NCBI GenBank assembly: GCA_963704015.1
Contig: CAVPGI010000002.1
Coordinates: 36,537-100,536, forward strand
Length of the DNA: 64,000 bases
From: an uncultured Gemmatimonadales bacterium
Lineage (GTDB): Bacteria > Gemmatimonadota > Gemmatimonadetes > Gemmatimonadales > GWC2-71-9
Reading direction: 5' to 3'
The position numbers and the translations under genes are program-made. Every line of letters begins with the position of its first letter. Within the stretch, counting starts at the first letter, position 1. Positions 1 through 9,751 of this stretch are shown here, piece after piece. Below the pieces are notes generated by a model that saw nothing but the letters and a program-made list of their open reading frames with translations, had not been told where the DNA came from and made no database searches.

Positions 1-758
1 ACCACGGCCTCTCGAGCGCCTGGGTCAAGCCCTGTCTGATGGAGCTGGGCGGCAAGAATGCGACGGTGGTCATGGAGTCGGCCGACCTCGACGCCGCGGC
101 CGAGGGCGTGATGCGCTCGGCCTTCGGGCTCCAGAACCAGAAGTGCAGCGCCACCAGCCGAGTCTACGTCCACCAAGCGGTGGCTCAGCTCTTCCTCGAG
201 AAGCTGATCGAGAAGACCAAGGCGGTGAAGATGGGCGACGTGACGCAGCGCGACGTCTGGTTCGGCCCGGTGATCAACCAGAAGGCGGTGCAGCGTTGGG
301 AGGGCGCCGTGGCCCAGGCGAAGAAGGAGGGCAAGATCCTGCTTGGAGGCGACCGCCTCAAGGGCGAGACCTTCGACCGCGGCCATTTCGTAGCACCCAC
401 CATCGCCACGCTGCCGCTCGAGAGCACCCTCTTCCGGGAGGAGCTGTTCGCGCCGTTCCTGGCCGTGGCTCCGGTCGCGAGTCTCGAGCAGGCGCTGGCG
501 GAGACCAACAAGGCCGAGTATGGCCTCACCGCGGGATTGTTCTCGAAGAAGCAGGAAGAGATCGACCGCTTCTTCGACGAAGTCGAGGCGGGGGTCTGTT
601 ACGTGAACAAGCGCAGTGGTGCTACCACCGGTGCCTGGCCGGGCGCTCAGCCGTTCACCGGCTGGAAGGGGTCAGGCTCGACCGGGAAGGGTGGCTGCGG
701 TCCCTGGTACGTGCAGCAGTTCATGCGCGAGCAGAGTAGGACGGTGGTGCAGGGGTAG
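1..758 (+). CDS. L-glutamate gamma-semialdehyde (1-pyrroline-5-carboxylate) dehydrogenase / aldehyde dehydrogenase family, 3' portion (5' end outside window)
   Basis: ELGGKNA and GLQNQKCSA catalytic motifs and a C-terminal PFTGWKGSGSTGKGG...FM tail typical of RocA/PruA-type ALDH. Stop TAG at 756-758. Confidence 0.75.
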   Translation, partial: HGLSSAWVKPCLMELGGKNATVVMESADLDAAAEGVMRSAFGLQNQKCSATSRVYVHQAVAQLFLEKLIEKTKAVKMGDVTQRDVWFGPVINQKAVQRWEGAVAQAKKEGKILLGGDRLKGETFDRGHFVAPTIATLPLESTLFREELFAPFLAVAPVASLEQALAETNKAEYGLTAGLFSKKQEEIDRFFDEVEAGVCYVNKRSGATTGAWPGAQPFTGWKGSGSTGKGGCGPWYVQQFMREQSRTVVQG

Positions 759-794
759 AGAAAGGCGGTAAAGGCCTGGCTAGTGCCTGCCTTC

Positions 795-850
795 AGTAAC
801 GCAGCGGTAAGGGACCGCTATGCAGCCCTTACGGTTTAGGCTGCGATGGG
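795..850 (+). terminator. Palindromic stem-loop just after the P5CDH stop (GTAAGGG-N12-CCCTTAC flanked by CGCAGC/GCTGCG). Possible terminator or recombination-site structure.
   Basis: Inverted repeats read directly; no T-tract follows. Confidence 0.35.
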
Positions 851-1130
851 GTGTTCTCTGAAGGGTCCATATGCAGTCGAATCGTAGTTAGGTGGTCTGG
901 CACGAGCATCACGATTTCGGTCTTGTCGGAACAGCTTGGTGTGCTGAAACGCCCGTCGCGCCTCCGTTCAACCCGGTTCTCCGGTGGCGGCGGGGGCTGC
1001 CCCCGAGGCCGCCCGTCCCCTCCGCGAGCACCCCCGCCTCGGTCTTCCGGGAAGTCGTTCCCGGCTTCACTTTCCGATATATGGCTCCTCGAAGCGCGGT
1101 CGCTTCCAGGCAGGTGCCCGGTGCGGGCCA

Positions 1131-1236
1131 GCCCCCTAACATGCGCTTGAAGCTGGCGGCGCCGGTGGTTCGAAGGGAATTCCTGATGAGGTGCATTGAA
1201 GGCAGGCGCCGCAGCTTAAGCGCCATCCGTTAGGTG
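1131..1236 (+). repeat. attC-like site 1 (R'' CCCTAAC 1134-1140; R' GTTAGGT 1229-1235)
   Basis: L'' ATGCGCTTGAAGCTGGCGGCGCC pairs with L' GGCGCCGCAGCTTAAGCGCCAT with bulged bases. About 88% identical to sites 2 and 3. Confidence 0.75.
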
Positions 1237-1247
1237 GCGGAGGGTAC

Positions 1248-1634
1248 ATGCCATCAGCAACTCTCTTGCGCCTCGTTCGAGAATGGCTTGACGACGCTCG
1301 AGAAACGCACCCTGCGTCTCTAAGCAAGGACGGCTCGGGTGTAATGATCTACGGCGACCTCGGTGGAGCCGCCTATATCCGCGCGGACGGCACCGTTGTA
1401 TTCGAGCCCTGGGACGACCTTCCTGATAATCAATGGCGGGCCGATCCCGGGTTCGTCTACGCGGTTCTGGTTATTGCTGCCAGAAAGCGGCCGGCTCTCG
1501 CCGAGCTCCTTCCGACCCGACCAGCCGCGGCGACTGATTGCGCGAAATGCGGAGGATCGGGGTGGCTTGCGATCGGCACCCACGAGGTTGTTTGCGGTGC
1601 TTGTCATGGTCTTGGGTGGCTCTCCGCCGCCTAA
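1248..1634 (+). CDS. Cassette ORF: hypothetical protein with C-terminal double CxxC zinc ribbon
   Basis: ATG 1248 with a GGAGGG RBS. Stop TAA 1632-1634 is embedded in the attC2 inverse core GCCTAAC. Contains CAKCGG...CGAC. Confidence 0.6.
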   Translation: MPSATLLRLVREWLDDARETHPASLSKDGSGVMIYGDLGGAAYIRADGTVVFEPWDDLPDNQWRADPGFVYAVLVIAARKRPALAELLPTRPAAATDCAKCGGSGWLAIGTHEVVCGACHGLGWLSAA

Positions 1635-1771
1635 CCAGCGCTTGAAGCTGGCGGGCGCTATCGTTTCAAGGGAAGCGGAGTGTCTGTGCGCTGGCGGGCA
1701 CGAACTCACGATCAACAACGCGGCGCGCCGTGTGCGAGTCGCCCACAGCTTAAGCGCGTGGCGTTAGGCGG
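1627..1771 (+). repeat. attC-like site 2 (R'' GCCTAAC 1629-1635; R' GTTAGGC 1763-1769)
   Basis: Terminal inverted repeats CCGCCTAAC...GTTAGGCGG with an internal CCAGCGCTTGAAGCTGG stem. Confidence 0.75.
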
Positions 1772-1785
1772 AGCCGCACACGCTC

Positions 1786-2118
1786 ATGTCAGCATCACCG
1801 AACGAACAAGCGAGAGCCGCCATCATTACTGCAGCTCAAGCGCTTCTCGATGGACAAATCGGTCCAATCGAGGCTGCGCGTCGCATTGCGACTCGACGCA
1901 ATGACCTCGATCCCAAACAGGAAGACGCCGACCTCCTTGGATTTGCCGGAATTGACTCTCAAACGGATCACCTGCTGCTGGGTGCCGACCTCAACACTTG
2001 GCATCCGAGCGTTCGCGAAGAGAAGACTAAGGAACTCGAGGAAACGGAGGAGTTCTTTCGCGCTTCCGCACTTGAAGGCGCCGCCGCCATCCTCGCTCGC
2101 TATGGGCGCCCCGCCTAA
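1786..2118 (+). CDS. Cassette ORF: small hypothetical protein (110 aa)
   Basis: ATG start. Stop TAA 2116-2118 lies inside the attC3 inverse core. Confidence 0.55.
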   Translation: MSASPNEQARAAIITAAQALLDGQIGPIEAARRIATRRNDLDPKQEDADLLGFAGIDSQTDHLLLGADLNTWHPSVREEKTKELEETEEFFRASALEGAAAILARYGRPA

Positions 2119-2216
2119 CCAGCGCTTGAAGCTGGCGGCGCCGGTGGTCTTAAGGGAATCCCTGATGATGTGCGTTGAAGGTAGGCGCCGCGGCTTAAGC
2201 GCAATGCGTTATACGG
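2111..2216 (+). repeat. attC-like site 3 (R'' GCCTAAC 2113-2119; R' GTTATAC 2208-2214)
   Basis: Same family as sites 1 and 2. Its 3' TTATAC is the reverse complement of the GTATAA of the next attC, a hybrid-site signature. Confidence 0.75.
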
Positions 2217-2372
2217 CACGGATGGCGTATCGTGTCGGCAAGTCCCTGTCACCTTCCGATCCGAATGCAGCTGTTCGCGCGCTATCATCTGACCTACAGC
2301 AAGTGGCCGGAGCGACCTGCTAAGTATCAGCCCGCTTAGCTGTGGCCACACTGGATCTAGCCAGGCCGCACG

Positions 2373-3146
2373 GTGAATCTCAAAGACCTCGCGCACAGCA
2401 TCTTGGCTCCGCTTAGTGAGCTGGTGCTTCAGCCCCTCAAGCAGTTCTTTCTAGGACTGAACGCCGGCGATCAGTTAGTTCTATCCATCCTCCTTGCTGC
2501 CTCAGCTGTCTTGGGCTTCGTCCTTGGCAGGCGCCGGGCCAACCGCGATGGTGTGTACAGGATTTTCGGTGCGTGGCGCTTCCCTGCATTCCAGAATAGC
2601 GGGGAGGCGCGGGTCTCTCATGTCTTGCGTTCACACTTCAGCCCTCCCGACTATCACCTGATGAATCACGTCACCATTCGAATGGATGACGGGACAACGC
2701 AGGTCGACCACGTCCTTGTTTCGCGGTTCGGCGTGTTTGTCATCGAAACTAAGGACTTCAACGGCTGGATCTTCGCGAATGCGACCGACGCAACGTGGAC
2801 GCAGGTTCACTTCCGACGGAAGTTCAAGTTCCAGAACCCGATCTTCCAGAACTTCAGGCACATGCGCGCTGTGGAAGGTCTGCTCGACTTCTTACCGCCA
2901 GAGGCAATCAAGTCGGTGGTCGTGTTCAGCGGTAACGCGGAGTTCAAGACAACGACCCCTCATGGAGTGATTGCAATCGGCGATCTAGCGGAGTACCTAA
3001 GGCGCCAGACCGACGAGGTCATGTCGCTCAACCGACTACAGTTCTGCGTGGGAAGGCTCGAGACAGCACGGCTCGCCATCAGCGGTGAGACCGATGTAGA
3101 ACACATACAGAGTCTCGCGCGACGATTCGGCGACGGCGCCGTATAA
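2373..3146 (+). CDS. Cassette ORF: NERD (nuclease-related domain) protein with N-terminal TM segment
   Basis: HVLRSHF...DYHLMNHVTIRMDDGTTQVDHVLVSRFGVFVIETKDFNGWI matches the NERD signature. GTG start. Stop TAA 3144-3146 lies inside the GTATAAC inverse core. Confidence 0.7.
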   Translation: MNLKDLAHSILAPLSELVLQPLKQFFLGLNAGDQLVLSILLAASAVLGFVLGRRRANRDGVYRIFGAWRFPAFQNSGEARVSHVLRSHFSPPDYHLMNHVTIRMDDGTTQVDHVLVSRFGVFVIETKDFNGWIFANATDATWTQVHFRRKFKFQNPIFQNFRHMRAVEGLLDFLPPEAIKSVVVFSGNAEFKTTTPHGVIAIGDLAEYLRRQTDEVMSLNRLQFCVGRLETARLAISGETDVEHIQSLARRFGDGAV

Positions 3147-3267
3147 CAACCGCATGAGGCTGACCGGCCTCGGCCATCGGTTTTCGTAAGGCCAGCACCA
3201 CTCTCGCTGCCCTGCCTGCTTGCGTGAGCGCGCCTCGGCCGGCAGCTTATGCGGGGCGTTAGGCGTC
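3142..3267 (+). repeat. attC-like site 4 (R'' GTATAAC 3142-3148; R' GTTAGGC 3259-3265)
   Basis: L'' CCGCATGAGGCTGACCGGCC pairs with L' GGCCGGCAGCTTATGCGG with extrahelical bases. Sequence is divergent from sites 1-3. Confidence 0.7.
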
Positions 3268-3289
3268 AGAACGGTGCGGCGAGAACCCA

Positions 3290-3976
3290 TTGCACGCAAA
3301 CAACCTCTTGAGTTCGACCAAGCGAATCGGGACCGGCCTATCCTTCATTATCTTCCCGATAGTCTTCGTCTTTGCCTTTTCGGTTCACCCGGGTTTGCTA
3401 CGCCCTCATGTGCTGGGTCCATCCGAACTCATCCTAAGAGCCCGCGGCGCAGACTTACTTCAGTTCGGGCATGCGTTGGTCACGCTCGATACGGCTCTGC
3501 TCGTGGTCGTCGCGCTGCACTTCATGAAACTCCTCGATCACACTTCTGGCGCATGGTGGGGATTTCTTGGCGCAGCATTGGCGGTATCGGGGTCTCTGGC
3601 GCTGGCAGCTGACAAGGGCGCGCTATGCCTCACGATGAGCGCTCTCAACAAACTCTCCGACGCCGAGTTCACGGCCATGATGCCGGGCCTACTGGCCATG
3701 TTTTCCAAACGCGGGTGGCTTGTCTTGCTCTGGGGGATATTGTTGCTTCCAGTCGGGTTCGGTATCCAGGCCATAGCCTTGCTTAGGAGCAAATCCCTTA
3801 GCCGTTGGCAGAGCCTCCTGCTCTTCGTCGGAGTTCTCCTCATTGGAACGCCTGATGGAGTTGAAATCGTCAACTTGACAGCGTCGGTCCTGCTGGCGAT
3901 CGCATTTGTGCCCTACGGTATTCAGATTATCTGGAGAGAGCATCAAGAAGTCGTTGCAAAGGGCGCTAACCCCTAA
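3290..3976 (+). CDS. Cassette ORF: multi-pass membrane protein (hypothetical)
   Basis: Several hydrophobic helices. TTG start at 3290 or 3308. Stop TAA 3974-3976 lies inside CCCTAAC. Confidence 0.55.
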   Translation: MHANNLLSSTKRIGTGLSFIIFPIVFVFAFSVHPGLLRPHVLGPSELILRARGADLLQFGHALVTLDTALLVVVALHFMKLLDHTSGAWWGFLGAALAVSGSLALAADKGALCLTMSALNKLSDAEFTAMMPGLLAMFSKRGWLVLLWGILLLPVGFGIQAIALLRSKSLSRWQSLLLFVGVLLIGTPDGVEIVNLTASVLLAIAFVPYGIQIIWREHQEVVAKGANP

Positions 3977-4012
3977 CGAGCGCATGAAAGTTGTCGCGCC
4001 GGAGCGGCTACT
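3971..4012 (+). repeat. Partial attC-like site 5 (R''-L'' half only: CCCCTAAC-GAGCGCATGAAAGTTGTCGCGCCGG)
   Basis: Homologous to the 5' half of attC1. No convincing L'/R' partner before the GTTAGCC junction at 4213-4219. Confidence 0.5.
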
Positions 4013-4034
4013 TGAACCAGGGGAGTGAGGCGAG

Positions 4035-4166
4035 CGCCGGTGCCTGGTCCTCAGCTCAGTCGTTCTGTGGATGGAAAGGCTCGGGCTCGACCGGTAAGGG
4101 GGCTGCGGTCCCTGGTACGTCCAGCAGTTCAAGCGAGAGCAGAGCCGGAGGGTGGTGCAGGGGTAA
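4035..4166 (+). pseudogene. Diverged, frameshifted duplicate of the P5CDH 3' end (copy B), followed by a hairpin at 4176-4196
   Basis: About 78% DNA identity to 628-758. Encodes GAWSSAQSFCGWKGSGSTGKG then loses frame. Confidence 0.7.
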
Positions 4167-4259
4167 AGAAGAGAGGGTACCGGCTCGGCCGGTGTCCGCC
4201 TTCCAATAGCTAGTTAGCCCAACGCAAGAGCCGGCCACGCGACATACGAGGAGAGATCG

Positions 4260-5315
4260 GTGAAGAAGCCAAGACGGGCAGAATACACGCCACTCGATTT
4301 CGCCCAATGGAAGGCCTCGAGCTCCCTGTCACTAACCCCAAAGTTCCAGCGACGTGGTGTCTGGAAGCCCGCGGCTCGCTCCTTCTTCGTGGACAGCCTC
4401 CTACGCGGCATGCCGGTCCCGCCTATCTACCTCCGGGAGATGCAGTCCCCCGAACGGGATCGCGTGATTCGCGAAGTCGTTGACGGGCAACAGCGAATCG
4501 CCGCTGTTCTGGACTTCATGGAGGGAAAGTACCGTCTCGCGAAGACCCTGAAGGGTTCATGGGCCGGAAAGCCCTTCAATGGGCTGGCAACAGAGGAACA
4601 GGACCGGGTCACGACTTACGCGTTCTCCGTTGAGGTGTTCCACGGAATCTCGGACTTGGAGGTGCTCGAGATCTTCTCCAGGCTGAACACCTACAGCGTC
4701 TCCCTGAACAGGCAAGAGCTTCGGAACGGGAGATTCTTCGGACTCTTCAAGCAGTCGGTGTACAGCATAGCCTACGAGCACCTGGAGTTCTGGCGTCGTC
4801 ACCGCATCTTCACTGAGCAGAACATCGCCCGAATGCTTGAGGCTGAGTTCGTGAGCGAGGTGTTCATCGCCTTCCTCGCAGGGCAGCAGGACAAGAAGAA
4901 GTCGATCGAGGCTTTCTATGACAAGTACGACGATGAGTTTCCCGACCAGTCGCGCACGGAAAAGCGCTTCCGCGAAGTGGTAGACGAAATACAAGAATCC
5001 CTGGGCGACAATTTGGCCGCGACGGTCTTTCGTCGCCCACCGATACTCTACTCCCTATTCTGCGTGCTGTATCACCGTCAGCATGGCCTTCCCGGTGTCT
5101 CACGTCCAACTCCCAAGAAGCGACTGTCTCAGGAGGAGCGTATGACGCTCCGAGAGGCGGTCGAGTCGCTCTCTGCTCGCGTCGATGCCGCTCGGGCCGG
5201 GGAGGAGGCTCCAACGCGATATGCGCCATTTGTCCAGGCCTGTCTCCAGCAGACGGACAACATCAGACCCCGAGAGACAAGGTTCAAGGCTCTGTATGCA
5301 GCGGCTTTCGAGTGA
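4260..5315 (+). CDS. DUF262 (ParB-like / GmrS-N type nuclease domain) protein; candidate defence gene 1
   Basis: VVDGQQRIAAV (the DGQQR signature). GTG start preceded by a GAGGAGAG RBS. 351 aa with a helical C-terminal half. Confidence 0.7.
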   Translation: MKKPRRAEYTPLDFAQWKASSSLSLTPKFQRRGVWKPAARSFFVDSLLRGMPVPPIYLREMQSPERDRVIREVVDGQQRIAAVLDFMEGKYRLAKTLKGSWAGKPFNGLATEEQDRVTTYAFSVEVFHGISDLEVLEIFSRLNTYSVSLNRQELRNGRFFGLFKQSVYSIAYEHLEFWRRHRIFTEQNIARMLEAEFVSEVFIAFLAGQQDKKKSIEAFYDKYDDEFPDQSRTEKRFREVVDEIQESLGDNLAATVFRRPPILYSLFCVLYHRQHGLPGVSRPTPKKRLSQEERMTLREAVESLSARVDAARAGEEAPTRYAPFVQACLQQTDNIRPRETRFKALYAAAFE

Positions 5316-5318
5316 GTC

Positions 5319-5963
5319 ATGCCGAGGCGAATGCCTGGCCTTCAGGCGGAGTTTCACCGCCAAGTCGCGGAGGCCATGAATCTTGCTGAGATCGGTGAGA
5401 TCGCTCGCGCGGAGGCTAGCGCGGGATCTCAGACCCGCAGTCGGCTGCACCACAGTCGCATCGAACTGTTGTACGAACTGGCGTTCCTTCGCATGTTCCT
5501 CGCGTGGGAGGCCTTTCTGGAACAGACGTTTCTGCGATACCTGTGCGGTTACTCCTCAAGGCACGGCCGCGCCGTTCCGCTCGCTACGGCGTCGTGGTCG
5601 CCTACTCTGGCGCACGCAGAGGCCGCCGTTCTTGGTGGAAGGGATTACGCACTCTGGCACAACCCAACTCAGGTCGCGGACAGGTGCCAGCGCATGTTCG
5701 GAAGTTGTCCCATTGAGGGCGTCGTCCGGTCGAGCATGTCCCGGCTGGAGGCCCTTGCTGCGGTGCGCCATCGCATCGTACACGCGCAGGCTGATGCTCG
5801 CCGCAAGTTTGACAACGCTACGATGACAATTGCGGGCAGGCGCTACAGAGGGGCACGGCCAGGCGCGTTTCTTCGGGACCGAAGTCCCAGCACAACGCCT
5901 CAGGTGCCCTGGCTTGAGCACCTAGGACGGGAGTTGCAGGGTCTTGCTTCTCAGATTGCGTAG
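5319..5963 (+). CDS. HEPN-like protein (Rx4H motif AAVRHRIVH); candidate defence gene 2, coupled 3 nt after the DUF262 stop
   Basis: ATG 5319 lies 3 nt after TGA 5313-5315. C-terminal RHRIVH fits the HEPN Rx4-6H motif. Family assignment not verified. Confidence 0.5.
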   Translation: MPRRMPGLQAEFHRQVAEAMNLAEIGEIARAEASAGSQTRSRLHHSRIELLYELAFLRMFLAWEAFLEQTFLRYLCGYSSRHGRAVPLATASWSPTLAHAEAAVLGGRDYALWHNPTQVADRCQRMFGSCPIEGVVRSSMSRLEALAAVRHRIVHAQADARRKFDNATMTIAGRRYRGARPGAFLRDRSPSTTPQVPWLEHLGRELQGLASQIA

Positions 5964-5997
5964 GCGAGGCAATGGCCGACGGTGGGGCACGGACCCG

Positions 5998-6057
5998 TGG
6001 GCTAACAACGGCATGCAGCGGACGGCCTTCGGCCGGCGCTAATGCCGAGCGTTACCG
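5998..6057 (+). repeat. attC-like site 6 (R'' GGCTAAC 5999-6005; R' GTTACCG 6051-6057)
   Basis: AACGGCATGCAG...GGCC-TTCG-GGCCGGCGCTAATGCCG stem. R'' is exactly complementary to the TTAGCC at 4214-4219, the 5' end of the DUF262/HEPN cassette. Confidence 0.65.
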
Positions 6058-6078
6058 AGTAGGGTAGTGCAGGGGTAA
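6057..6078 (+). pseudogene. Remnant of the last ~6 codons plus stop of the P5CDH 3' end (copy C)
   Basis: AGTAGGGTAGTGCAGGGGTAA encodes SRVVQG* versus SRTVVQG* in copy A. Confidence 0.5.
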
Positions 6079-6084
6079 AGAAGT

Positions 6085-6111
6085 GAGGGCACCGGCTTCG
6101 CCGGTGCCCTC
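6085..6111. terminator. Perfect 12-bp hairpin GAGGGCACCGGC-TTC-GCCGGTGCCCTC; bidirectional terminator between the P5CDH tail and the convergent aminotransferase
   Basis: Read directly from sequence. Confidence 0.6.
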
Positions 6112-6135
6112 TCCGCTTGGTTCTCGAATGCCGAT

Positions 6136-7479
6136 CTAGTCTTCCTCTCCCAGGCACTCCTCCAGAATCCCCATCCCGGTATCCACGTCGTACTCGTCCA
6201 GCACCAGCGGCGGGGCGAGGCGGAACGCACTCTTGCCGCAGCCGAGCAGTAGCAGTCCCTTCTGGAAGGCGCGCATCGGTGACCCGCTCGATCAGCTCCG
6301 GATAGGGCTCCTTCGAGCGGCGATCCTTGACGAACTCCATCCCGATCATGAGTCCCCGGCCCCGCACGTCGCCGATGACGGCGTGACGGTCCATCAGCTT
6401 CCGGGCGTGGCCCATGATCCGCTCGCCCATGGCCTTGATGTGGGGGAGGGACTGCTCCACCACGTCCAGGGTGGCCAGCGCCGCGGCGCAGCTCACCGGA
6501 TTGCCGCCGAAGGTGGAGCCGTGGCTGCCGGACTCCCAGGTCATCACCGACTCCCGCGCGATGAAGGCGCCGATCGGCATGCCCGGATCCCAGCCCCTTG
6601 GCGGTCACCAGGATGTCGGGCTCGACCTCTTCCCAGTCGCAGGCCCACATCTTCCCGGTACGGCCCACCCCGCTCTGCACTTCGTCGGCCACCAGGAGAA
6701 TGCCGTGACGGTCGCACAGCTGTCGCAGCGCCTTGAGGAATCCCATGGGCGGGATCACGTAGCCGCCCTCACCCTGGATCGGCTCGACGAAGATGGCCGC
6801 CACGTCATCGGGCGCCACCTGCCGGCCCATCAGTCCTTCCTCGATCGAGGCGATGACGCTCTCGATGTTCTCCAGGTCGGTGGCGCCCTCCGGTCCCCGA
6901 TAGGGATTGCAGAAGGGCACGTGGTAGACCTCGGGGAGAAACGGCCCGAAGTGGCGCCGCTGTTTGGTCTTGCTCGAGGTCAGGCTCATCGCCCCGTAGG
7001 TCCGGCCGTGGAACGAGCCGTGAAAGGCGATCAGCGCCGGCCGGCGAGTGTGATAGCGGGCCAGCTTGATGGCTCCCTCGACCGCCTCGGTGCCCGAGTT
7101 GGTGAGGAACACCCGCTTGCGGCTGGTTCCCGGGGCCAACCGCGCCAGCCGCTCCGCCAACTGAGCGAACCCCTCGAAGTAGAAATCGGTGCCGCAGATG
7201 TGCAGGAACCGGTCGGCCTGGTCCTTGATCGCCGCGACCACCTTGGGGTGGTTGTAGCCGGTGGCGCTGACCGCGATGCCGGCCATGAAATCGAGGAACT
7301 GGTTGCCGTCGACGTCCTGCACCATGGCGCCGCGCCCGCCGGCGATCACCAGGGGATACTCCTTGATGTAGGACGTCGAGGTCCAGGCCTCGTCACGGTC
7401 GATGATCGCCTTGGCCTTGGGCCCCGGCGGCGCGGCCACGATGCGGGGATAGTCGCGAGTAGTGGTCATGGACGGCATC
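6136..7479 (-). CDS. Class III (GabT / acetylornithine-type) aminotransferase; at least two apparent frameshifts
   Basis: MPSMTTTRDYPRIVAAPPGPKA... and PLP-region motifs DEVQSGVGRTGKMWA, then GMPIGAFIARESVM in another frame. An extra base in the CCC run at 6582-6584. Confidence 0.7.
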
Positions 7480-7510
7480 TCGGTGAAGAAGGCGTCGATG
7501 TCTCGGTGTC

Positions 7511-8899
7511 CTAGGCGTGCACCGCGTGCGTCGCTTCCGCCTTCTGTTCGGCGGCATGCTCGCGCCACCATTGCTGACCGGAGGCGGGCAGGGTGTAGAT
7601 CGGGTCGTAGTACTCGTGCTTCCGCTGGAGCGCGGTCTGGTCTCCCCACTCGATGCAGGTCAGGTAGTTCTTGGTCCAGTAGGAGATGCCCTTCTCCCGG
7701 TCGTACTCCGCCAGCTGGTGGACCCAGCGCTTGCCGACGAAGGGGACGTCGCAGACGATCCGCGGCGTGGCGAAGCCGGGCAGATAGCCCATGATGTCGT
7801 GCTGCAGCTGCTGAGCCTCCCACACGGCGACCCGCCAGTGCTCGGAGTTGGGGATCATGTCGCACATGTAGAAGTAGTACGGCAGGATCTTGGCGTGATC
7901 GAGCAGCATGAAACAGAGATCGAGCAGGTCCGGGGCCGTGGCGTTCACGCCCCGGAGCAGCACGCCCTGGTTCCGGACGTCGCGGAAGCCGATCTCCAGC
8001 AGCTTGCGGGTGGCCTTCCCGACCAGAGGGCGTCACCTGCTGGCCCGCATTGGCGTGGGTGTGCAGCGCCAGGTCCACCCCGCGATCGAAGGCCTTCTTG
8101 GCCAGCCGCTCCAGCCCCTGCGACCACGCTGTCCTGCAGGAAGTGCTGAGGCAGGCCGATCAGTCCCTTGGAGGCCAGCCGGATGTCCCGGATGTTCGGG
8201 ATATCGAGCAGCGCGCTCACGAAGGGCTCGAGCTGGGAGATGTGCAGATTGGCGATGTCTCCCCCGGAGACGACGACGTCCCGCACCGCCGGCGTCTTCC
8301 GCAGATAGTCGAGAATCTGCTGGTGCCGGTCCTTCTGGGGGATCTGGAACTTGAGCTTCTCCACCTGGGGCACGTCGTTGCCGACCAGGTCCATCCGGGT
8401 GCAGTGCCCGCAGTACTGGGGACAGGTGGACAGGAGCTCGGCCAGCACCTTGGTGGGGTAGCGATGGGTCAGCCCCTCGACCACCCACATGTCGGCCTCG
8501 TGCAGGCTGTCGCGCGAGGCCTTGGGGTGATTGGCCCAGTCGGTGCGCCGGTCGTCGAAGGCCGGGATCATGTAGCGACGAACCGGATCCTCCCACAGCT
8601 GCTCCACGTCCATGGTGTTGATCATGTGGGGCGGGAGCAGCATGGACATCGTGGCCCGCAGCTCGTGATCCTTGGCCATGCTCTCGGCCAAGGTGTCGGG
8701 AAGCAACCCGCCCAGGACGCGCCTTGAGCTCGCTCAGGTTCTTGATGGTGTGCCGCCGCTGCCAGGTCGCGCTCTCCCAATCCTCGCGGCTTACGCCATG
8801 GTAGCCCGGGATGCGATTCCAGTCCGGCTCGACGTATTCGCGCCGAGGCGGGTAGGGAATCGGCTGGCCGGTGCTGGTCTCCGCGATGGGTTTCTGCAT
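7511..8899 (-). CDS. kamA: Lysine 2,3-aminomutase (radical SAM); apparent frameshifts near 8040 and 8700
   Basis: CPQYCGHCTR CxxxCxxC motif, LPYYFYMCDMIP, N-terminal MQKPIAETSTGQPIPYPP...WQRRHTIKNLSELKA. Confidence 0.7.
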
Positions 8900-8904
8900 G
8901 CCTG

Positions 8905-9038
8905 CCTCGACCGAAAGGCGTTCTACGCCGAAACTACAATGTGATGTAGTACTTGACGTTGAGAACGTAATATATAATATATGATCACGCAAGTCGGCTA
9001 GTCAAACGCCTTATACCCATAAATAGCGTGAGAGGTCT
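8905..9038. promoter_or_regulatory. AT-rich divergent intergenic region (kamA <-> GntR) with near-palindrome ACGTAATATATAATATATGATCACG
   Basis: Strongly AT-rich island in a GC-rich genome. Candidate operator and promoters. Confidence 0.4.
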
Positions 9039-9751
9039 TTGGTCGATCTGGTAACGGTTCTGGGACGCCTTCCGCGGACCCGCCGACAAGCCACCCACGA
9101 GCTGGTAGCGGAGGTGCTCCGGGAAGCCATCATTTCCGGCCTGCTCCGCGCCAACCAGCCGCTCCCCCAGGACGAAATCGCGAGCCCAACTTCGGGTCAG
9201 CCACATTCCGGTGCGCGAGGCGCTGCGCCAGCTCCAATCCGAGGGTCTGGTCACCTACCAGGCCAACCGTGGCGCGGCGGTCAGCGCTCTGACCCAGGGT
9301 GAGATCCGCGAGATCTATGAGATCCGCGCCATCCTGGAGACGGCCGCCATTCGGGAGGCGGTTCCCCTCCTCACCGCGGAGCAGCTCGACCAGGCCGAGC
9401 GGATCCTGGACGCCGCCGAATCGGCGGGCGACGCAGCGGCGTGGGGGTCTCTCGATGTCGACTTCCATCGGCTGGTATACGGACTCGAGCGATCGCCCCC
9501 GCCTGCGGGAAATGATCGACGGCCTGCTCCGCCGCGTGGACCGCTATTGGCTGACCCACGGATTGATGCTCAGGCATCGCCACGTCTTTGAGCGCGAGCA
9601 TCGGGCCCTGCTGGCCGCGGTCCGCGTCCGCGACGCCGACCTGGCTGCGCGCCTCCTGGGCGCCCACCTGGCCGGAGCGGCCGAGCTGCTGGTGACCGAG
9701 CTCGACCAGCTGGAGGCGGGGCATCCGAGCCGGTTGGGCCTCACGGCATGA
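9039..9751 (+). CDS. GntR-family transcriptional regulator (FCD-type C-terminal domain); two apparent frameshifts
   Basis: N-terminal HTH LREAIISGLL...LPQDEIAS, then REALRQLQSEGLVTYQANRGAAV in the next frame. Extra C in the CCC run near 9184. Confidence 0.65.

Follow-up and report, generated by a model that had tools for sequence, protein, structure and literature searches.

The stretch of DNA analyzed here, 64,000 nucleotides of contig CAVPGI010000002.1 (assembly GCA_963704015.1, positions 36,537 to 100,536) of an uncultured Gemmatimonadales bacterium, is called the window throughout. It begins within an aldehyde dehydrogenase gene, and between this gene and a convergent class-III aminotransferase gene lies a series of open reading frames (ORFs) separated by palindromic repeats, in which an earlier note, made from the sequence alone, saw an integron-type cassette array with no integrase gene (intI) in a high-GC, likely non-proteobacterial chromosome. 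According to our analysis, the region 778-6057 is very probably the array of cassettes of a chromosomal integron in a Gemmatimonadales bacterium from soil, where the attI site and six cassettes persist and intI has most likely been lost; in other words, it is an attC-site cluster without an integron integrase (CALIN) that retains attI. The segment 887-6057 contains five complete attC sites and one truncated site, all on the plus strand and at ORF ends. The cores, sites (scored with the covariance model R1 described below) and cassettes are as follows.

1134-1140 (CCCTAAC), 1629-1635 (GCCTAAC), 2113-2119 (GCCTAAC), plus strand: R'' cores
3141-3147 (GTATAAC), 3971-3977 (CCCTAAC), 6000-6006 (GGCTAAC), plus strand: R'' cores, continued
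887-893 (GTTAGGT), 1229-1235 (GTTAGGT), 1763-1769 (GTTAGGC), 2208-2214 (GTTATAC), plus strand: R' cores
3258-3264 (GTTAGGC), 4213-4219 (GTTAGCC), 6051-6057 (GTTACCG), plus strand: R' cores, continued
1134-1235, plus strand: attC site S1, 102 nt; R1 78.4 bits, E 1.7e-20; fold z -4.75
1629-1769, plus strand: attC site S2, 141 nt (141-nt class); R1 59.7 bits, E 5e-15
2113-2214, plus strand: attC site S3, 102 nt; R1 67.4 bits, E 3e-17
3141-3264, plus strand: attC site S4, 124 nt; R1 40.1 bits, E 3e-9
3971 to about 4009, plus strand: truncated attC site S5, R'' and 5' arm only; no R1 match; fold z -0.56
6000-6057, plus strand: attC site S6, 57-58 nt; R1 match 6000-6056, 20.5 bits, E 1.6e-3; fold z -3.56
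888-1229, plus strand: cassette c1, no credible ORF (its ORFs have no Pfam match), ending in S1
1230-1763, plus strand: cassette c2, ORF 1248-1634 (128 aa, CxxC...CxxC motif), ending in S2
1764-2208, plus strand: cassette c3, ORF 1786-2118 (110 aa, no family), ending in S3
2209-3258, plus strand: cassette c4, ORF 2373-3146 (257 aa, NERD nuclease-related domain and N-terminal membrane segment), ending in S4
3259-4009, plus strand: cassette c5, ORF 3290-3976 (228 aa, hydrophobic, no family), ending in the truncated S5
4214-6051, plus strand: cassette c6, ORFs 4260-5315 (351 aa, DUF262/GmrSD_N) and 5319-5963 (214 aa, no family), ending in S6

The core positions given by the earlier note were right within 1 nt. 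The cores demonstrate some departures from the consensus, namely C instead of R in the first position of R'' in S1 and S5, and R' sequences off RRRY in S3 and S6; since the cores are relaxed, the strict pattern RYYYAAC...GTTRRRY recovers just one site. The downstream half of each R' belongs to the next cassette, as expected for attC. The GTTAGGT core at 887-893 has no attC upstream of it; it forms the R box of a conserved attI and is no stray half repeat. Four ORFs, ending at 1634, 2118, 3146 and 3976, stop with a TAA located inside the R'' core, just as had been noticed; a fifth, ending at 5963, uses TAG instead, 37 nt before its R''. The reported complementarity between the first bases of a cassette and its own R'' was also observed: the agreement is 7/7 for c3 (TTAGGC versus GCCTAAC), c4 and c6, and 6/7 for c1, c2 and c5. 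In particular, the unusual pairs TTATAC/GTATAAC and TTAGCC/GGCTAAC each agree in 7/7 positions. The lower GC content of the cassettes was borne out as well, with 60.2% in the array versus 66-67% in the flanks.

Folding of the five complete sites as single-stranded DNA yielded in each case an R box with TAAC and GTTA paired, a short unpaired spacer and a long L stem, the pairing of the TAAC...GTTA ends being evident both from the cores and from the folds. All five carry two extra bases on the R''-L'' arm, and their z-scores against shuffled sequences range from -2.0 to -4.75, in agreement with the attC-like imperfect palindromes with bulged bases described before. S5 lacks a 3' folding partner (z -0.56), and its 5' arm resembles the 108-120-nt attC class of metagenome contigs L161 and L183. 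Two statements on the relatedness of the sites had to be revised. Sites 1 to 3 were said to be about 88% identical, and the value measured for sites 1 and 3 is 84%; sites 4 to 6 were called unrelated, but site 4 and half-site 5 belong to the same metagenomic attC superfamily and differ in length class.

A search of positions 1-9000 against Rfam (E up to 10) returned chance matches only and no attC family. A loose energy scan produced many weak matches in this 66% GC DNA; it was tightened, then superseded by a covariance model. The tightened scan of the 64 kb revealed no further TAAC...GTTA site of similar stability. An alignment of the window sites themselves (A1) had misaligned 3' arms and would have given a circular model, and was not used. 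Using the 5' arm common to sites 1-3 (TAACNNGCGCWTGAAGCTGGCG) as the query of an exact-pattern scan of JGI metagenomes, we found at least 120 soil contigs, several of them with 3-6 copies at cassette-like spacing. A structure-aware scan detected 466 attC-type sites in the 395 kb of these contigs, which fall into length classes of 90, 102 and 141 nt. The covariance model R1 was trained on an alignment (A3) of 83 non-redundant soil-metagenome sites, none of them from the window, with 22 R/L-box pairs, 97.9% of cells paired, and one covarying pair (UA 56, CG 12, AU 3, GC 1).

Applied unfiltered to the 64 kb, R1 gives exactly five plus-strand matches, S1, S2, S3, S4 and S6; the best match elsewhere in the window has an E value of 0.6, and the same coordinates on the minus strand score at most 23 bits. 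The attC covariance search proposed in the earlier note thus yielded significant strand-specific matches that, within the window, are limited to the proposed sites. Since the matches are strand-specific and confined to the locus, these are attC sites and not dispersed repetitive extragenic palindromic (REP) elements; neither the energy scan nor R1 detected copies of the REP or miniature inverted-repeat transposable element (MITE) type in the remaining 58 kb of the window. The repeats are confirmed as genuine attC sites in a real integron array. Five of them fall within 4.9 kb, neighbouring sites being no more than about 2.7 kb apart, and the window contains no intI; this is the clustering that defines a CALIN. 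The cassettes consist of one or two ORFs followed by attC, excepting c1, which has no ORF, and c5, whose attC is truncated. A 50-nt GC-rich hairpin with CAAC/GTTG ends at 5890-5939, inside the 214-aa ORF of c6, reached -37.5 in the energy scan and has no match to the attC model.

The first cassette is preceded by a region that resembles the attI sites of integrons carrying the same attC family.

1-758, plus strand: 3' part of the aldehyde dehydrogenase gene, its best matches being L-glutamate gamma-semialdehyde (delta-1-pyrroline-5-carboxylate, P5C) dehydrogenase; stop TAG 756-758
778-893, plus strand: attI-like region, crossover between G887 and T888
778-791 and 834-846, plus strand: attI elements, possible distal repeat GGCTAGTGCCTGCC and repeat GTTTAGGCTGCGA
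876-882 and 887-893, plus strand: attI boxes, L box GTCGAAT and R box GTTAGGT

The order of elements in the window is GTTTAGGCTGCGA, about 30 nt, GTCGAAT, CGTA and G/TTAGGT (here and below, a slash marks the crossover or junction). As judged from alignments A2 and A4 and a motif scan, the counterpart of positions 834-893 in six comparators (L201, L202, L158, L098, L198 and L106) is the stretch that separates the intI stop from the first cassette. Where it follows the intI stop, this stretch has repeated TTAGRC-type boxes and ends in an L box (variants GTCGAAT, GTCCAAT and ATCGAAT), which 4-5 nt separate from the R box GTTAGGC. Positions 778-833 demonstrate weak similarity to the attI region of the comparators. 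The sequence comparison thus shows 834-893 to be homologous to attI, and this homology perhaps extends from 778.

A tblastn search with IntI1, which served as a probe only, together with a recombinase motif search revealed no tyrosine recombinase in the window, as the earlier note had stated; the same probe found nothing in 80 related genome loci, covering flanks of up to 10 kb on each side of the dehydrogenase gene. Among the metagenome contigs, it detected an IntI homolog in L158 and a fragment in L098. The L158 ORF matches the NCBIfam model TIGR02249 'integron integrase' with 369 bits versus a cut-off of 265 and contains the IntI-specific patch. Several of the soil contigs with this attC family have their array immediately downstream of a genuine integron integrase gene of the TIGR02249 type, in the order intI, attI and cassettes on one strand. 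The L158 intI (L158 1270-2109, minus strand) is decayed, an internal deletion of about 36-50 aa having removed the catalytic-arginine region, and L098 1-330 holds intI fragments only. A database search from the L158 ORF retrieved thousands of integron integrases of 320-330 aa, some of them assigned to Gemmatimonadales: P0036 and P0051, from Gemmatimonadales metagenome-assembled genomes (MAGs), are 69-72% identical to the integrase linked to the attC family of the window.

Genomic contexts of full-length IntI proteins were considered for L201 (P0036; Gemmatimonadales MAG GCA_035763805.1) and L202-204 (P0010). All have the order intI, about 130 nt, G/TTAGGC and first cassette on one strand; R1 attC sites follow P0010 on the same strand in L202-204, and the L201 contig stops inside the first cassette. 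In L202, the first cassette has no called ORF, and a tRNA-like stretch seen by eye on the reverse strand at 9100-9300 was not recognized as a tRNA by ARAGORN. In complete integrons of the family, the end of intI is separated by about 10 nt from the attI region and by about 130 nt from the crossover; in the window, the place of the intI stop is occupied by the dehydrogenase stop (756-758). It is for this reason that we read the locus as most likely having lost its integrase, either by deletion or when an attI-array segment replaced the local allele.

Contigs L198 and L106 likewise have attI and an array without intI, only a few bases of the intI end being kept, and 5/9 of the attI-bearing loci examined are without intI (the window, L198, L106, L100 and L162). 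The last two are short contigs on which no intI was detected. They share a variant attI module of about 85 nt (GGTTTAGGCTGCGA...GCCTAAT-ACTA-GTTAGGC; L100 827-1000, L162 930-1040), located directly after a tRNA-Leu gene in L100 and, in L162, after a protein gene, where a stretch resembling a tRNA 3' end precedes it.

By analogy with known integrons, each attC would have its bottom strand folded into a hairpin by IntI, which would then exchange one strand at G/TT, with attI for cassette insertion and with another attC for excision. Each cassette would then bear the scar of this reaction, TT plus the complement of its own R''. Without an IntI supplied in trans from another part of the genome, the array would be frozen.

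The earlier note overlooked that the 3' end of the dehydrogenase gene (its last 25-170 nt) and the terminator region are present in three copies, A, B and C, which give the locus a nested composite structure.

731-762, plus strand: copy A, the last 30 nt or so of the live gene, stop at 758; as similar to the closest relative L001 as the rest of the gene
3995-4219, plus strand: unit B, a dehydrogenase pseudogene copy of about 170 nt, to 4165, with one frameshift
4175-4197, 4201-4207 and 4213-4219, plus strand: end of unit B, terminator hairpin followed by an attI-like simple site with L TTCCAAT and R GTTAGCC
6057-6135, plus strand: unit C, the last 25 nt or so of the dehydrogenase (6057-6083), the native bidirectional hairpin (6085-6111) and a spacer

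Terminator analysis detected no strong terminator at 755-835, after copy A. Copy B is 75-87% identical to copy A (81% over 163 nt by blastn). This conservation is uneven along 3995-4165, the last 80 nt or so being 87% identical to the live gene versus 75% and many amino-acid changes in the first 90 nt or so, perhaps as a result of gene conversion with copy A, or because the tail and terminator region is under constraint. Unit B ends in the simple site TTCCAAT-AGCTA-G/TTAGCC, from which the upstream attI repeats are absent. The 3' half of the fifth attC has given way to copy B, whose left end is fused to the 5' arm of that site; around this junction, GGAGCGGCTAC of the window, GGGGCGGCCAC of the attC class and GGGGTCTGTTAC of the gene look alike by eye. 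Unit C is 88% identical to unit B. Its hairpin is a strong terminator (z -4.97), its spacer reaches as far as the convergent aminotransferase gene, whose stop is CTA 6136-6138, and the tail is joined 6 nt past the crossover of the last attC, with TTACCG between G6051 and the tail.

In L001, the unit of tail, terminator and simple site is present twice, including an identical TTCCAATAGCTAGTTAG, and a decayed attC directly abuts CG/AGTACGG. An attC end thus stands beside the same tail position (CG/AGTAGG) in both genomes, with no bases in between in L001 and with 6 nt between crossover and tail in the window. The segment comprising unit B, c6, unit C and the aminotransferase gene is found with identical gene lengths and spacing in two independent Logan assemblies, whose agreement makes an assembly chimera unlikely for the part from B to C. 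These short contigs, from samples ERR12036778 and ERR15459715, were the only matches of exact-protein searches for two of the cassette proteins; three other cassette proteins gave none.

The fusion of a truncated fifth attC to a gene-tail pseudogene shows that the array is composite. Two or more insertions or allele replacements would have followed one another at a single spot, each pushing the older gene end rightward. The B junction does not lie at a G/TT crossover, which points to illegitimate recombination, for example a one-sided homologous recombination of an incoming allele. The C junction and that of L001 could have been produced by allele replacement, or by an integrase using a secondary site within the tail of the gene. 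We tentatively suggest, as a possibility that we regard as rather unlikely, that the nested tails are a fossil record of integrase-less attI-plus-array modules spreading and stacking at the terminator of a housekeeping gene. Such stacking might proceed by serial one-sided homologous and illegitimate recombination of incoming alleles from related strains, or IntI might have recombined an attC with a secondary site located in the gene tail. The attC ends found at the same tail position in the window and L001, and the lack of intI at 5/9 attI-bearing loci, speak for this possibility.

The cassettes could also have been inserted off-target, at attG sites near the dehydrogenase terminator, by an integrase encoded elsewhere, so that the locus was never a complete integron. 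Off-target insertion as such is experimentally established and has been put forward to explain small CALINs (bioRxiv 10.1101/2022.09.11.507474), and several junctions would suit it: unit B has a short L/R simple site right after a terminator without upstream attI repeats, as do the copies in L001, and the unit C and L001 internal-copy junctions fall at an attC 3' end (6 nt past the crossover and directly after G, respectively). We nevertheless consider it improbable, since 834-893 shares about 60 nt and an upstream repeat with the family attI, far beyond a secondary GWT site, since simple insertion at a secondary site would not duplicate 25-170 nt of the target gene, and since the similarity of the native spacer to the simple site is not significant. 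Direct repeats of the 3' end of a target gene that bracket and divide an insert are also typical of islands integrated at gene 3' ends. Accordingly, copies A, B and C might be the attL, hybrid and attR sites of two tandem islands mobilized by a conventional tyrosine recombinase, with the cassettes as cargo, and the related attI module directly after the tRNA-Leu gene in L100 would fit such an origin. The probability of this scenario is low: between the repeats there are only attI, cassettes and attC sites, with no integrase, excisionase or backbone; the repeats are unequal (30, 170 and 25 nt) and 75-88% identical; and B is joined on its left within an attC arm.

Two further explanations deserve little credence. 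The earlier note left open whether the array is a CALIN or has its integrase upstream of position 1, and the window does begin inside the dehydrogenase gene. The former part stands and the latter is very unlikely indeed: in 6/6 attI comparators intI or its remnant ends directly before attI on the same strand, where the window has the dehydrogenase gene, and the flanks of the 80 related loci (up to 10 kb per side) contain no IntI-like sequence. That the sites are generic REP/MITE-like palindromes or an assembly artefact unrelated to integrons is next to impossible. High-GC genomes are rich in hairpins and the loose scan gave many weak matches, yet the sites are confined to 1134-6057, always at ORF ends and on one strand, as the earlier note had it in tying them to ORF boundaries; they have the R/L box architecture, they are matched by a model trained on arrays beside integron integrases, and the B-c6-C part recurs in two independent assemblies with the same gene lengths and spacing.

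Several observations weigh against our reading of the locus as an attI-bearing integron remnant that has lost intI, or against parts of it. No convincing intI coding remnant was found in 759-833, and 759-795 has weak similarity to the intI end and the distal attI repeat; translocation of an attI-plus-array segment is therefore as possible as deletion of intI in place. A remnant search with the ATG-start reading of L158, a peptide of only 27 aa, was uninformative. The analysis covers 64 kb of the genome, and an active intI may be present elsewhere in it. The R1 score of S6 is just 20.5 bits. The mechanism for the three tail copies was read from the anatomy of the junctions only, and a proto-attI role of the native spacer after terminator C is not supported, the resemblance of this spacer to the simple sites being not significant. 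A scan of 600-6300 revealed no sigma-70-like promoter, a consensus that may not fit the host phylum. Finally, given the frameshifts in the aminotransferase gene described below, some single-base details, including the frameshift of copy B, may be assembly errors.

The cassette cargo looks partly defensive from its sequence similarities. The first gene of c6 matches the Pfam family GmrSD_N (3.7e-20) and the PADLOC models NsnA (9.8e-35) and PD-T4-2_A (2.5e-22), and the order of the two c6 genes is repeated in the two Logan assemblies; the second gene (214 aa) had no match among the PADLOC defence models. The c4 protein contains a NERD domain (Pfam, 3.3e-26). Thus, a two-gene DUF262/NsnA-like cassette and a NERD protein are the candidates, and some cassettes likely carry anti-phage genes. 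The c2 protein has a 51% identical homolog in another metagenomic array, L183, and no family match in Pfam, PADLOC or NCBIfam was found for c3, c5 and the other remaining cassette proteins. Because no strong terminator follows copy A, expression of the cassettes probably depends on read-through from the dehydrogenase gene.

The dehydrogenase (Pfam Aldedh, 6.7e-64; best NCBIfam models NF002852/TIGR01237) has its relatives in Gemmatimonadales MAGs, which identifies the host order and agrees with the non-proteobacterial host suspected earlier. The best relative, L001, is 95% identical at the amino acid level and 87% at the nucleotide level, the latter over the full length of the gene, tail included. 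The comparison with the same locus in related genomes that the earlier note called for showed a conserved pair of convergent dehydrogenase and class-III aminotransferase genes, with a gap from about 150 nt to 5.6 kb. Several relatives have the empty form of the locus, in which the dehydrogenase stop is followed by the terminator hairpin and the aminotransferase stop. Among the relatives examined, cassettes occupy the spot only in the window genome and L001, the latter with a same-family attC at the end of its contig. The larger gaps of other relatives were considered as candidate arrays and rejected, as they contain ordinary genes of host GC content, with no attC and no tail duplication. The spot is variable in content. 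In L010 (10760-11060), L048 (10760-10990) and L049, it is filled with tandem heptamer-like repeats (CTCACTT/GTGAGAA) that form a long inverted structure around the terminator. The aminotransferase gene of the window (6136-7480, minus strand) is spread over three reading frames, with shifts near 6280 and 6590, either because it is a pseudogene or because a long-read assembly introduced homopolymer errors; at about 7500-8990, a gene resembling lysine 2,3-aminomutase is apparently split too. A search of a plasmid collection with the window array returned only coding similarity to the NERD and aldehyde dehydrogenase genes, with no related array.

The kind of element described here is already well known, and the current understanding of integrons is unchanged. 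CALINs are about as common as complete integrons (PMC9024848) and contain about six attC sites on average (PMC4889954, PMC9024848); integrase loss, rearrangement and off-target insertion have been proposed as their origins (PMC8618304; bioRxiv 10.1101/2022.09.11.507474). The array shares with CALINs as defined (PMC4889954; PMC9024848) the presence of two or more attC sites spaced by under 4 kb, ORFs on one strand and the lack of a nearby intI; here there are five sites and a truncated one. What differs is the preserved attI homologous to that of complete relatives, whereas most CALINs have no nearby intI remnant and their attI is usually not assessed. Integrons have been recorded in Gemmatimonadota (PMC8618304), including an array of more than 10 attC sites in Gemmatirosa kalamazoonesis (PMC9024848). 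The plasmid search with the window array gave no Gemmatirosa match; the known Gemmatimonadota integrons share the phylum with the window, as do the Gemmatimonadales integrases P0036 and P0051.

CALINs and chromosomal integrons with a decayed intI beside a housekeeping gene are documented as well (PMC8618304, PMC9024848, PMC4889954, PMC12444791). A close parallel is the Xanthomonas chromosomal integron downstream of ilvD, with its fixed-locus CALINs (PMC12444791): there, too, a sedentary array at a fixed place directly follows a housekeeping gene. Arrays in Xanthomonas are lineage-specific, and inactivation or deletion of their integrase is frequent. The window differs in the phylum, in the co-directionality of the intI of its family with the cassettes, in the occupation of the locus in the window genome and L001 only, and in the triplicated 3' end of the flanking gene. 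The attG cassettes and single attC sites lacking an integron integrase (SALIN; bioRxiv 10.1101/2022.09.11.507474) and the delta-attI-type cassettes (PMC12901181) are similar in lying outside a complete integron; here, c5 ends with the attI-like simple site of unit B and not with a full attC. In contrast, the first site here is a long attI homolog and not a GWT site, and the hybrid end of c5 results from a junction inside an attC arm and not at a G/TT crossover. Defence genes in chromosomal integron cassettes have been described, and sedentary chromosomal integrons regarded as anti-phage banks (bioRxiv 10.1101/2024.07.02.601686). The compact two-gene DUF262/NsnA/PD-T4-2_A-like unit and the NERD protein resemble such cargo, but their role in defence is predicted from sequence, and the second gene of c6 is without a match among the defence models.

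The locus nevertheless provides a well-resolved integron array from Gemmatimonadales, an abundant and little-cultured soil group, and ties a very large soil attC family, with classes of 90, 102 and 141 nt, to an integrase type and an attI. Its cassettes are candidate compact defence genes. As a CALIN with a partly readable history, in which attI is kept, the integrase is missing and older gene ends are nested, it bears on the question of how CALINs originate. If the stacking of modules tentatively suggested above is true, such arrays would not be dead remnants but satellite docking sites that an integrase elsewhere serves in trans.

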